Positions 5,100 through 8,100 of a stretch of 39,485 bases of DNA are shown piece by piece. The stretch lies in the IMG/VR virus record IMGVR_UViG_2802429241_000009, one strand, 5' to 3'. Position 1 is the stretch's first letter, and every line of letters starts with the position of its first letter. The stretch comes from a virus (lineage: Duplodnaviria; Heunggongvirae; Uroviricota; Caudoviricetes). A model generated the notes under the pieces. It saw only the letters and a list, made by a program, of their open reading frames with translations. It did no database searches and had not been told where the DNA came from. Position numbers and translations under genes: made by a program.

Positions 5100-5684
5100 T
5101 TATTGTTTGTTTTTTTCGTTCTGGTTGATGACAAATTCAATGTAACTTTCGATCTTTGCTTTCTCGGTTTCGGGTAACAATGCGTAGCGCGAGCGATCAT
5201 AGTTGATGGTCGCAGGGTCGTGCGGGTGAATCAGTAATTCATAGCCGTGACGCCCGAATGCGGATGCAACATTCTCCAGGGTGGAAATGGAAACGCTGAC
5301 CTCATTGTTTAACAGGCGGCTGATTGTCACCTGGGCGACGCCGGATGCGCGGTGTAGTTTTCCCTGCGTTGAAAGGTCGCGGCTTTCGCTCATCCAGCGT
5401 TCCAGGTTGTGAGCCGCCAGCTGACCAATGTCGCTAGGGCCGACAGGCTGAAAACCTTCCTGAGAAAGCGAGCGATCGATATCAAGCCAGTTACGGGGTT
5501 TATTGGCGGCAGCTTCAATTTTTCGCGCAACCTGGTCGCCGATAACCTTCTTGCCAAGAGCCCAGCGGTTTACCAGATTTGCCTGAGTTCCAAGTTTTTC
5601 AGCCATCCGCGTCTGAACACCATTGAATTCACGGTCGATCAAGTCGTTGAGATTTTGCCTGCGGACGTCCTGGATACTTTTCAT
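5100..5684 (-). CDS. Prophage repressor candidate (CI-like position, two HTH-like segments, no visible autocleavage module)
   Basis: 194 aa, divergent from the Cro-like gene; followed by an intrinsic terminator; no Ala-Gly/Cys-Gly plus Ser-Lys peptidase module recognised by eye. Confidence 0.65.
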   Translation of the reverse strand: MKSIQDVRRQNLNDLIDREFNGVQTRMAEKLGTQANLVNRWALGKKVIGDQVARKIEAAANKPRNWLDIDRSLSQEGFQPVGPSDIGQLAAHNLERWMSESRDLSTQGKLHRASGVAQVTISRLLNNEVSVSISTLENVASAFGRHGYELLIHPHDPATINYDRSRYALLPETEKAKIESYIEFVINQNEKNKQ

Positions 5685-5739
5685 TTTCTGGAAAATCGCC
5701 TCATATATGAATCAGTAGATGATTCAATTTAAAGCAATA

Positions 5740-5754
5740 TTACCCAACAGGTAA
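5740..5754. promoter_or_regulatory. Operator-like palindrome TTACC-N5-GGTAA (immunity region site 1)
   Basis: Exact inverted repeat between the divergent repressor and Cro-like genes. Confidence 0.6.
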
Positions 5755-5756
5755 AT

Positions 5757-5771
5757 GCACCCCATAGGTAA
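5757..5771. promoter_or_regulatory. Operator-like variant GCACC-N5-GGTAA (immunity region site 2)
   Basis: One half-site degenerate; 17 bp centre-to-centre from site 1. Confidence 0.4.
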
Positions 5772-5784
5772 CTATCCTTGATTT

Positions 5785-5813
5785 TTGTTACCTTATGGGT
5801 GAATATTTATTAT
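5785..5813 (+). promoter_or_regulatory. PR-like sigma70 promoter candidate for the Cro-like gene
   Basis: -35 TTGTTA (5785..5790), 17-bp spacer, -10 TATTAT (5808..5813); operator variant overlaps the -35. Confidence 0.5.
5788..5802. promoter_or_regulatory. Operator-like variant TTACC-N5-GGTGA (immunity region site 3), overlapping the PR-like -35
   Basis: One mismatch in the right half; overlaps TTGTTA -35 and spacer. Confidence 0.45.
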
Positions 5814-5838
5814 CTGAAATAAATATCAGGCAATAGCT

Positions 5839-6069
5839 ATGAGCGATAACGGACATTTCGATTTCAAAAAGCACTGGCTTGCACTTACTCCGGATGAGCG
5901 TGAAGCCTTCGCACAGGAAGCCGGAACGACGAGTCACTATATCCAGACTCACTTAACAGGTAAGCGCAAAATGCCAGGTAAGGTATTGATGAATGGGCTT
6001 TTTAAAGCCTGTAAAACAAGACAATGGCTGCGCTCAAAAGCAGAACTGGCATACTTCTTCTACTCATGA
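5839..6069 (+). CDS. Cro-like small HTH regulator
   Basis: 76 aa, divergent from the repressor across the operator cluster; LALTPDEREAFAQEAGTTSHYIQTHLTGKRKMP HTH-like segment. Confidence 0.65.
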   Translation: MSDNGHFDFKKHWLALTPDEREAFAQEAGTTSHYIQTHLTGKRKMPGKVLMNGLFKACKTRQWLRSKAELAYFFYS

Positions 6070-6090
6070 TATCCAGCCACAACCATCTGT

Positions 6091-6118
6091 AGACCGCCAT
6101 CCGGCGGTCTTTTCATAT
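6091..6118 (+). terminator. Intrinsic terminator downstream of the Cro-like gene (tR1-like position)
   Basis: AGACCGCC-ATCC-GGCGGTCT followed by TTTTCATATCT. Confidence 0.6.
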
Positions 6119-6124
6119 CTATTC

Positions 6125-6139
6125 GCACCTTAAAGGTAA
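6125..6139. promoter_or_regulatory. Operator-like variant GCACC-N5-GGTAA downstream of the Cro terminator
   Basis: Same variant as at 5757; followed by ATATGGTT. Confidence 0.3.
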
Positions 6140-6217
6140 TAAAAAACCAAATATGGTTGATCAAATTTTCCAATTGTGCAAAATAGCCAATATCAATAAC
6201 AAAAAGGGGCGGAAAAA

Positions 6218-6430
6218 TTGAAGATAGTAACCAGAATGGAGGCCGCAAAAGCCGGGTTAAATCGCTATTTCACAGGAAAGCGGTGCCGTCACGGCCATCT
6301 CTCTGAAAGGTATGTTCTGAACGGAACATGTGTTGAATGTGCAATGAATAGCGCCAACCGCCATCGTAATGAATTTGCTTGTGCACTAAAGAGTGCAAGA
6401 GGGGAAACCTATGGCAAGCAGCTGGATTAA
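6218..6430 (+). CDS. Small zinc-finger-like protein (putative early regulator)
   Basis: C-x-H-x-H ... C-x2-C spacing (CRHGH...CVEC); TTG start at 6218 with GGGG SD, or ATG at 6236. Confidence 0.45.
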   Translation: MKIVTRMEAAKAGLNRYFTGKRCRHGHLSERYVLNGTCVECAMNSANRHRNEFACALKSARGETYGKQLD

Positions 6431-7235
6431 GGTTGAAGTTATCACTCCTGATAAACCTGAAATTTTTCAGATAGCAGAAATTCTGGGTATTGATCCAGAT
6501 GCTGTTCTTGGAAAGCTGGTTCGTATATGGGCATGGGCTGACCAGCAAACAATAGACGGTAACGCTGGCAGCGTTACAAAAGGAGTACTTGATAGACTCG
6601 CTTTTATTACAGGATTTGCTGACGCCCTCATTAGCGTCGGATGGCTTGCTTATCATGACGGCAAACTAATCCTTCCAAACTTTGAGCGACATAATGGAGA
6701 ATCATCGAAAAAACGTGCACTTACGAATAGAAGAGTGGCAGAGCATCGAAAACGAGTAACGCAAAAAGTAACGCCAACAGCGTTACAAAAGGAGTTACCA
6801 GAGGAAGAGGAAGATATATATAAAACCCCACACATAGCGCACGTGCGCGATGGTGCTCCGACCAGTGAAGCGAACGGTATGCCGTTGCAGGTGGCTGAAC
6901 CTGAATTTCTGGATGGCCTGAGTGAACCCATCGGGAAATTTCCGATGACCGATGGCTGGCATCCGTCGCCGGATTTTCGACGGCGTGCTGCGCTGTGGGG
7001 AACGGCCCTGCCGGAACCGGAATTTACACCTGCTGAACTTGCTGCATTCCGGGATTACTGGATGGCTGAGGGCAAAGTGTTCACGCAGGTTCAGTGGGAA
7101 CAAAAATTCGCCAGGCACGTAAATCATATCAGGGGAAAATCAAAAAACGCCGGGAAAAGCGATGAGCTTGACTGGAATAACACTGACTGGATAGAAGGGG
7201 TGTGGGATGAAATCAACTCCAGAACTTCTCAATGA
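6411..7235 (+). CDS. Replication initiator / replisome organizer (lambda O-like position)
   Basis: 275 aa immediately upstream of the P-like gene; palindromic iteron-like repeats and an AT-rich tract lie inside the gene; start at ATG 6411 (GTG 6393 alternative). Confidence 0.65.
   Translation: MASSWIKVEVITPDKPEIFQIAEILGIDPDAVLGKLVRIWAWADQQTIDGNAGSVTKGVLDRLAFITGFADALISVGWLAYHDGKLILPNFERHNGESSKKRALTNRRVAEHRKRVTQKVTPTALQKELPEEEEDIYKTPHIAHVRDGAPTSEANGMPLQVAEPEFLDGLSEPIGKFPMTDGWHPSPDFRRRAALWGTALPEPEFTPAELAAFRDYWMAEGKVFTQVQWEQKFARHVNHIRGKSKNAGKSDELDWNNTDWIEGVWDEINSRTSQ
6559..6588. repeat. Iteron-like element 1 inside the replication initiator gene: GTAACGC-N5-GCGTTAC plus AAAAGGAGTAC
   Basis: Perfect 7-N5-7 palindrome; recurs about 209 bp downstream in a different reading frame. 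Confidence 0.55.
6768..6797. repeat. Iteron-like element 2: GTAACGC-N5-GCGTTAC plus AAAAGGAGTTAC, with an extra GTAACGC at 6756 and an AT-rich tract at 6811..6825
   Basis: Same palindrome and 3' extension as element 1 but in another codon frame, so conserved at DNA level. Confidence 0.55.
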
Positions 7236-7983
7236 GTACGATCGCTTACGTGAGCATGGTGTTGCTGTGCATGAAGAGCGGCGTGACAGCAATGGCAAAA
7301 AGGAGCAGGTTGCTAGAATTTTCAATGAACTATTTGTCCAGTTACAGGCTGCATTTCCTGCAAGCGTTTCGACCATAAGGGAGCAGAACAAACTTAATGA
7401 ATTCCGTAAGCAATGGATGCTTGCCTTTCTGGAGAATGGGATCACAACAATGGAACAGGTTAACGCTGGTATGCGCCACGCCCGCGCCAGTGAATCTCCG
7501 TTCTGGCCGTCGCCTGGGCAATTCATCAAGTGGTGTAAAGACAGCAAGATGGTTCTTGGCGTCACCATTGACGATGTGATGGCGGAGTTTCACCGGTACA
7601 GCAAGGAAAAAAGTTTATATCCAGGTGGTCCCGAAAGATTCCCGTGGCGGCATCCGGTTATGTACTGGGTCGTATGTGATACCCGCCGTGCAATGTATCA
7701 GCGCCAGCTTAGCGAGATTGAGGTTGAGAAACACGCGCGCAGGCTGCTCGATGATTGGGCGAAAAAGGTGGCTTCCGGACAGCAGATACCCGATCCGGTG
7801 ATCAGCATACAGGCAAAGCCAGAGCCCATGAGTACACCTCCGGACACAGGGAGAGGCGTTTACCATCCACCAGGGCGAAGTTTCGGGTGCATGCCTAACG
7901 CCGCCACCCTTGGGGGAATAACACCGGCGCAGTGGCTGATGGAGGAATACAGGCGGGGAAAGGCGGCAGGATTTATCAAGTAA
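7207..7983 (+). CDS. Lambda P-like replication protein (helicase loader)
   Basis: NGITTMEQVNAGMR and FPAS...QW segments match lambda P as recalled; overlaps the end of the upstream replication gene. Confidence 0.8.
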   Translation: MKSTPELLNEYDRLREHGVAVHEERRDSNGKKEQVARIFNELFVQLQAAFPASVSTIREQNKLNEFRKQWMLAFLENGITTMEQVNAGMRHARASESPFWPSPGQFIKWCKDSKMVLGVTIDDVMAEFHRYSKEKSLYPGGPERFPWRHPVMYWVVCDTRRAMYQRQLSEIEVEKHARRLLDDWAKKVASGQQIPDPVISIQAKPEPMSTPPDTGRGVYHPPGRSFGCMPNAATLGGITPAQWLMEEYRRGKAAGFIK

Positions 7984-7988
7984 TACCA

Positions 7989-8008
7989 GCGCGATAGCGC
8001 ATTTTTTT
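7989..8008 (+). terminator. Weak terminator-like hairpin after the P-like gene
   Basis: 4-bp GC stem (GCGC-GATA-GCGC) followed by a 7-T run. Confidence 0.35.
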
Positions 8009-8020
8009 ACGCCTCAATAA

Positions 8021-8035
8021 TTACCTGCCAGGTAA
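8021..8035. promoter_or_regulatory. Operator-like palindrome TTACC-N5-GGTAA (upstream member of a pair)
   Basis: Exact; 62 bp from the site at 8083, the same spacing as in the left operator region. Confidence 0.55.
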
Positions 8036-8054
8036 TAAAATATTCTAAACTCTA

Positions 8055-8083
8055 TTGATTTCGTGTCTTATGTGGTTTTTAAT
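8055..8083 (+). promoter_or_regulatory. Sigma70-like promoter candidate upstream of the gene at 8101
   Basis: -35 TTGATT, 17-bp spacer containing TTATGTGGTT, -10 TTTAAT; bracketed by operator sites 62 bp apart. Confidence 0.4.
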
Positions 8084-8097
8084 TACCTTAGAGGTAA
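8083..8097. promoter_or_regulatory. Operator-like palindrome TTACC-N5-GGTAA (downstream member, ends 4 nt before the ATG at 8101)
   Basis: Exact; overlaps the candidate -10 TTTAAT. Confidence 0.55.
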
Positions 8098-8100
8098 ATC

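Follow-up and report, generated by a model that had tools for sequence, protein, structure and literature searches.

Replication origins of temperate phages are known from experiment for only a handful of lambdoid phages. In lambda itself, four tandem 18-bp iterons lie within the gene for the initiator O, and the next gene encodes the helicase loader P. A related described system is DopC/DopE, a domesticated pair of O-like and P-like proteins in Cellvibrionales and Oceanospirillales (Brezellec et al. 2017, PMC5509034). The dopCE genes are chromosomal and fixed in their host lineages, and the authors found no iteron-like repeats in dopC (PMC5509034). Here we describe a locus in the IMG/VR record IMGVR_UViG_2802429241_000009, a Caudoviricetes phage genome of 39,485 nt, which was analysed over its full length and is called the window below. 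Its replication initiator gene (6411-7235, + strand; 274 amino acids [aa]) contains two copies of the palindrome GTAACGC-N5-GCGTTAC, the second of which is followed by a homopurine/AT tract. From the evidence given below we infer that these elements probably form a phage replication origin, embedded in the initiator gene in the manner of lambda and served by an initiator of a different family.

The palindrome occurs exactly twice in the 39.5 kb, and both copies lie within the initiator gene, 209 bp apart from start to start. A 28-nt pattern, GTAACGCNNNNNGCGTTACAAAAGGAGT, matched the whole window only at 6559-6586 and 6768-6795, and 100 dinucleotide-preserving shuffles yielded 0 matches, with 0 expected by chance. 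The distal copy (site 1; GTAACGC-TGGCA-GCGTTAC, 6559-6577) is located within the coding sequence of the N-terminal domain (N-domain) of the initiator, at offset 148 of the open reading frame (ORF) and in codon phase 1, where it codes for the loop D-G-N-A-G-S-V-T between the helices at aa 29-46 and 57-64. The proximal copy (site 2; GTAACGC-CAACA-GCGTTAC, 6768-6786) is located where the coding region of the interdomain linker begins, at offset 357 and in phase 0, and encodes V-T-P-T-A-L. An outer-left half-site, GTAACGC (6756-6762, + strand), is found 12 bp upstream of the site-2 palindrome. On the other side, the flank shared by the two sites, AAAAGGAGT(A/T)AC, hides at site 2 an outer-right half-site, GAGTTAC (6792-6798, - strand), which agrees with GCGTTAC at 6/7 positions and reads GCGTTAC in most relatives. 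Site 2 therefore consists of four half-sites at 12-bp steps, in the orientation > > < < (6756, 6768, 6780, and 6792).

The outer-right half-site abuts a homopurine tract, AGAGGAAGAGGAAGA (6800-6814, + strand; encoding EEEED), so that the order at site 2 is the half-site array, the 15-nt homopurine run, and then the AT tract AAGATATATATAAAA (6811-6825). The AT tract is a candidate DNA-unwinding element, to which the homopurine tract probably contributes the left part, and also a mosaic joint (see below). The 30-mer at 6795-6824 is the least stable within the gene (dG, -32.7 kcal/mol; window mean, -40.8; sd, 3.3) and falls within the lowest 2% of the whole window. A preliminary description of the window had listed two copies about 209 bp apart in different codon frames of one ORF, an extra GTAACGC at 6756, and an AT tract at 6811-6825, and we recovered each of these features at the same place.

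We compared the locus across relatives of the N-domain. In total, 160 loci with N-domain relatives were collected from GTDB genomes and IMG/VR and were cut to 66 representatives with <90% aa identity (range of protein identity, 36 to 100%). The representatives come from Enterobacterales, Pseudomonas, Ralstonia, Stenotrophomonas, Planctomycetota, Verrucomicrobiota (Akkermansia), and others, and a Stieleria chromosome (Planctomycetota) holds two copies of the locus. Allowing ≤1 mismatch, 121 palindromes were found in the 37 kb of gene-start regions (570 bp, from -150 to +420) and 0 in the other 363 kb. Site 1 was found at +148 to +160 in 57/66 relatives and site 2 at +337 to +393 in 54/66, and the spacer varied freely. 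Additional half-sites recurred around the palindrome: forward TAACG cores at -11/-10 and -23/-22 relative to it and reverse CGTTA cores at +24/25 and +36.

Throughout the relatives, site 1 codes for the loop (D)G-N-A-x-S-V-T, and the codons used for this loop are strongly biased: GGT in 62/66 cases (background, 0.30), AAC in 54/54 (background, 0.67), AGC in 42/42 (background, 0.21, with six Ser codons), and GTT in 55/61 (background, 0.36). At the conserved residues next to site 1, synonymous codons were used about evenly (saturated). Site 2 occurred in codon phases 0, 1, and 2 in 15, 35, and 5 cases, respectively. Moreover, several enterobacterial lineages carry a third, non-coding palindrome 32 to 99 bp upstream of the ATG, and in a few relatives a pair of palindromes is spaced by 23 bp. 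Taken together, the location of the sites, the fixed codons, the use of all three phases, and the non-coding copies exclude a protein-level explanation, and the comparison showed strong selection on the palindromes as DNA and not as protein. The conservation at the DNA level that had been proposed from the two copies in the window is thus upheld by codon choice, by site 2 in three phases, and by the third copy upstream.

The tract next to site 2 was likewise found across the relatives. The longest purine run after site 2 had a median of 18.5 nt, compared with 6 nt in control 90-mers (95th percentile, 11). In 53/66 relatives, GT[TG]A[CG]C was fused to the purine run, for instance as GTTACC-AGAGAAGAGAAGAG in relatives and as GTTACC-AGAGGAAGAGGAAGA in the window. 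The purine run is kept even in GC-rich Pseudomonas and Planctomycetota, and a short A/T-rich stretch comes next. The tract also marks a boundary of homology: the similarity to BUCT554 and ST11-OXA245phi3.2 ends at ∼6814, and that to an Actinobacillus phage begins at ∼6816. Because homology switches right after the homopurine tract, the N-domain together with its sites constitutes a single module that can be exchanged. Members of the family combine this module with various C-terminal domains (C-domains), and throughout the family the downstream gene encodes a helicase loader or a helicase (lambda-P-like, DnaC/IstB-like AAA+, or DnaB). By analogy, a module joined to varied C-domains and partners is the classic modularity of lambdoid replication regions.

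At 6840-6851, just beyond the right end of the AT tract, GCGCACGTGCGC is a perfect palindrome of 12 bp, and GC-rich or C6...G6 inverted repeats are often present at the equivalent place in relatives. A conserved GC-rich element in this position was considered and rejected, since a GCGCG-type motif was found in 28/53 loci at a control rate of 0.48 and was thus not enriched.

The palindromes could instead be operators for autoregulation only, by which the initiator or another phage regulator blocks or attenuates rightward transcription, with the origin located elsewhere. The sites do lie within a transcribed gene, the third copy of some relatives lies shortly before the start codon, where an effect on expression is conceivable, and dimer-type palindromes are typical of repressor operators. 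However, operators alone leave unexplained both the invariant homopurine/AT tract fused to the last half-site in 53/66 relatives and the module boundary right after that tract, and the replication region offers no second repeat cluster or AT-rich candidate tied to the initiator. Autoregulation and origin function can also coexist. We therefore consider a purely regulatory role unlikely, though it is the strongest of the alternatives.

The sites might also be bound by some other host or phage protein, for partition, packaging, recombination, or module exchange. The mosaic joint at ∼6815 coincides with the tract, and the initiator is only presumed to be the binding protein, both of which would suit such a factor. 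Its probability is nevertheless small in view of how closely the sites follow the N-domain. In a reverse search, the 23-nt core GCGTTACCWAGAGAAGAGAAGAG was found in 113 viral contigs, 110 of which carry an N-domain gene in cis, located 369 to 435 nt upstream of the motif. Two of the 113 contigs end too near the motif to judge, so that linkage was found in 110/111 testable contigs, and no ori-only elements (motif without gene, e.g., satellites) were present among the 113. The hosts range from E. coli to Planctomycetota, without a common phage-specific host factor. Further, a switch of motif class accompanies a switch of N-domain clade, whereas the C-domain, the type of loader, and the remaining genome are free to vary. 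Five divergent loci (L073, L077, L079, L080, and L082) have GTCACGC-N5-GCGTGAC at both sites, and in this class the extra half-site by the purine tract is likewise switched, to CGTGACC. In another locus (L052), both sites read GTTGCGC-TCCGA-GCGCAAC, and the protein loop becomes DGCAPSAT.

Slightly less probable again is that the elements act as hairpins, whether as mRNA stem-loops (for stability or RNase III), as antisense terminators, or as single-stranded DNA (ssDNA) priming hairpins. Each palindrome can fold as a 7- to 8-bp hairpin with z-scores of -4.3 to -5.4 relative to shuffles, and on the minus strand the site-2 hairpin (6768-6786) is followed by TTTTTGCGTT and was flagged as terminator-like for antisense transcription. 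However, this minus-strand T-run is not conserved in relatives, a search of 5600-8100 against Rfam gave no match at E ≤ 1, and the stem sequence itself is conserved across phyla, beyond what pairing requires. All half-sites co-vary with the sequence class, including the direct flanking ones that have no pairing partner. Within a class, changes affect one side at a time and fall at edge positions 1 and 7, with the core (positions 2 to 6; T-A/C-A-C-G) nearly invariant and the spacer free, and 64/130 palindromes are imperfect, being asymmetric at the edge positions without compensation. One-sided edge changes together with direct flanking half-sites fit half-site recognition by a dimeric protein and not an RNA or ssDNA hairpin. 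Finally, a chance repeat or a peptide repeat (NAxSVT coded twice) has next to no probability left, for although the two sites share a phase in many distant relatives, and N-A-x-S-V-T is encoded twice there, chance alone would give 0 matches, site 2 encodes a different peptide in another phase in the window and in 20/55 site-2 palindromes of relatives, Ser is always AGC and Gly GGT (background, 0.21 and 0.30), and copies are also found in non-coding DNA upstream of the gene, so that the frame and codon data effectively refute it.

The initiator protein matched phrog_2509 ("replication initiation protein") over its full length (aa 1-266; E = 3.2e-127). Confident AF2 models gave a winged-helix N-domain (aa ∼10-118) with helices at 16-25, 29-46, 57-64, and 69-76, a beta-wing at 80-87, and a long helix at 98-118, followed by a disordered linker (aa ∼120-170). 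The C-domain (aa 177-247) is a DnaT-type ssDNA-binding domain (Pfam PF17948, E = 6.5e-19; Foldseek matches to 4ou6 and 6aeq with 55 to 59% identity and a TM(target) of 0.84 to 0.93). No Pfam matches, including Phage_rep_O and HTH_36, were obtained on aa 1-170, there is no Pfam or NCBIfam model for the N-domain, and a PDB sequence search with the family profile returned only DnaT C-domain matches, with E > 0.2. A single-sequence search with the N-domain found 7,116 clusters (50% identity) at E ≤ 1e-3 and 4,783 at E ≤ 1e-10.

A reading of the initiator as a DnaT equivalog was rejected, because it scored 93.6 bits against NF002770 (cut-off, 201) and only aa 169-250 aligned. Names such as "primosomal protein I", which RefSeq gives and which family members often bear, therefore mislead, since only the C-domain is common to DnaT. 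The identity of 55 to 59% between the C-domain and enterobacterial DnaT (window 7000-7150) is higher than is usual between a phage and its host, which suggests that the domain was exchanged in the fairly recent past. Because of this closeness, "primosomal protein I" has become a misannotation in several phage records.

If the locus is an origin, replication could start as follows. Dimers of the N-domain would bind the 19-bp palindromes through the core TAACG half-sites, and further protomers would bind the flanking half-sites at 11- to 12-bp steps. The distal palindrome, ∼209 bp upstream (∼20 helical turns), may join the same nucleoprotein complex by looping or wrapping, as may the third palindrome upstream of the gene in those relatives that have it. 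Stress from this complex would melt the adjacent homopurine/AT tract (6800-6825), after which the role of the DnaT-like C-domain would be to bind the single strand, to dock the P-like loader with its cargo of host DnaB, or both. Delivery of DnaB by the loader would start bidirectional replication, with rightward early transcription through the gene probably assisting, as in lambda. We put forward more tentatively, and would sooner doubt than assert, a broader proposal: that a single origin-initiator cassette has stayed almost unchanged across phyla, that one of the initiator's own sites dictates the surface loop DGNAxSVT of its DNA-binding domain, and that a looped or wrapped complex of ∼200 bp opens a homopurine tract in place of a classical AT-rich unwinding element.

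It is important to note that several observations weigh against an origin of this kind. Five of the most divergent relatives (L074, L076, L078, L081, and L083), with N-domain identities of ∼42 to 49%, either lack recognisable palindromes at the two positions or carry short repeats of another kind; they may use another type of site or may have lost origin function. The case for binding of the sites by the N-domain draws on covariation between clades, in which phylogeny is a confounding factor; in particular, the residues that tell the GTCACGC from the GTAACGC class also differ by clade, so that the two effects are confounded. As for looping, the distance between sites 1 and 2 was near multiples of ∼10.5 to 11 bp among 58 representatives (R = 0.48), but over the 20 distinct spacings R was 0.31 (p ∼0.15), and looping is speculative because this phasing was not significant on distinct spacings. 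The likeness to lambda is also incomplete. Where lambda has four tandem iterons, there is here one palindrome flanked by half-sites at 12-bp steps; the distal palindrome lies 209 bp upstream, inside the coding sequence of the DNA-binding domain; and the AT tract is ∼11 to 15 bp long, compared with ∼40 bp in lambda. In addition, no experiments on any member of this initiator family were found in the literature searched. The preliminary description had spoken of iteron-like repeats and of an origin inside the initiator gene in the classic lambdoid arrangement. Wherever sequence analysis could test this reading, it was supported: the sites are conserved as DNA, they belong to the N-domain module and change with it, they are followed by a homopurine/AT tract that should melt easily, and the next gene encodes a P-like loader. 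However, one palindrome with half-sites and a distal palindrome are not four tandem iterons, and the initiator has no detectable homology to lambda O (probability of 0.2 in an hhalign comparison of the family profile with lambda O).

The setting of the gene in the window is an early-right operon, with a layout typical of temperate phages. A repressor gene (5100-5684, - strand) is followed by a cro-like gene (5839-6069) and by a small Cys/His-rich ORF of 70 aa with a CxxH...CxxC-type motif (6218-6430; phrog_1081, function unknown). The latter occupies the position of cII, and its end overlaps the start of the initiator gene. Downstream is the gene for the partner of the initiator, a lambda-P-like helicase loader (7207-7983, + strand; Pfam Phage_lambda_P [PF06992], E = 1.7e-55; phrog_109; 39% identity to lambda P). 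The sequence AGACCGCCATCCGGCGGTCT, a strong hairpin of the terminator type with TTTC after it, is found at 6091-6110, directly behind the cro-like ORF and before the replication genes, and it is possibly a terminator under anti-termination control. A 1.1-kb query (6200-7300) was 98.7% identical to Escherichia phage TL-2011b, in keeping with the window being a 39.5-kb phage genome, and had further relatives among the epsilon15-like podophages (genus Uetakevirus).

Three sequence records deserve comment. One relative on a contig assigned to Streptomyces hayashii (JAHHIU010000566.1, 1,551 bp; L051) has palindromes with the same sequences and positions as those of Pseudomonas cyclaminis (L041), and it may represent Pseudomonas contamination of the Streptomyces assembly. 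The 41,205-bp "plasmid" of Pusillimonas sp. T7-7 (NC_015459.1; L167) is a complete circular siphophage genome with terminase, portal, capsid, and tail genes, whose replication module combines an initiator of the window's family with an AAA+ loader. Its filing as a plasmid is compatible with episomal replication and proves nothing. "Escherichia phage Rac" of strain 442/2 (MN652886, 1194-1614; L165), a Rac-like element, carries in the initiator slot a true family member named ydaU. Its three palindromes of the GTAACGC type are spaced by 193 and 207 bp, and the first of them lies just ahead of the start codon.

In the literature on TL-2011b, epsilon15/phiV10, lambdoid iterons, DnaT-domain initiators, and the motif, we found no description of this origin. 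What stands out from the comparison of sequences is that the motif is nearly invariant across phyla and that the binding site appears to dictate a loop of the very domain presumed to bind it. If the broader proposal above is true, a simple DNA consensus, GTAACGC-N5-GCGTTAC ... GCGTTACC-homopurine, would be enough to predict where replication starts in thousands of prophages that are still uncharacterised. A cross-phylum consensus of this sort would allow origins to be annotated directly in Enterobacterales, Pseudomonas, Xanthomonas, Ralstonia, Akkermansia, and Planctomycetota prophages, and it could aid replicon building for genetically difficult hosts. The locus would further be a clean example of a cis-acting DNA site that constrains protein sequence within the domain presumed to read it, and the two functions, as DNA site and as protein, would be separable by synonymous recoding.

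The locus can also be compared with other known systems. Iteron-plasmid Rep proteins of the winged-helix RepA/RepE/TrfA type show no sequence homology to this initiator, and they have tandem WH1-WH2 domains, whereas the N-domain here is a single winged helix. The sites also differ, being palindromic and dispersed here and direct and tandem in those plasmids. With E. coli DnaT (primosomal protein i), only the ssDNA-binding domain is held in common, and the N-terminal two-thirds of the initiator is unrelated.

The oriJ/YdaU region of the Rac prophage of E. coli K-12 occupies the same genomic slot, after cro/cII-like genes and with a loader gene next, and it too has intragenic repeats in ydaU. 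A link to this system was nevertheless rejected, as K-12 YdaU (DUF1376) is not homologous (BLASTP E = 0.94; hhalign probability, 1.2), and the repeats of K-12 ydaU are direct AGATGTTCAA units, unlike the palindromes described here. What experiments have shown for oriJ can therefore not be carried over to the initiator family of the window. Since ydaU of strain 442/2 belongs to the family and K-12 ydaU does not, the gene name ydaU covers two unrelated initiators. In K-12 Rac (L166, 4261-4563; NC_000913, ∼1421260-1421562), ydaU contains five direct ∼14-nt repeats, AAGCAGATGTTCAA-like, three of them spaced by 33 bp near mid-gene; the repeats plausibly serve as the iterons of oriJ, an origin known from experiment.

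Of the published architectures, that of DopC/DopE comes closest, as there also a protein with an N-terminal HTH and a DnaT-C-terminal-like domain is followed by a lambda-P-like protein (PMC5509034). Unlike DopCE, the pair in the window is part of a phage early operon, and its initiator gene carries conserved repeats.

The arrangement also resembles that of lambda. In both, the sites lie within the initiator gene, in its interdomain region (here site 2, the homopurine tract, and the AT tract at aa 116-138, where the linker begins), and the first iteron of lambda O begins at +349, compared with +357 for site 2. In both, the binding sites have dyad symmetry with a purine-rich, AT-rich tract directly to their right, the next gene encodes a P-type helicase loader, and the N-domain and ori are exchangeable, with a mosaic joint after ori. 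The proteins differ in that the N-domains are without detectable sequence homology and that the C-domain here is DnaT-like and not the lambda O C-domain. The motif, moreover, is nearly invariant across phyla, unlike lambdoid iterons, which differ between close relatives. An origin inside the initiator gene is thus a classic principle, and what is new here is the initiator family and the distinctive arrangement of its sites.

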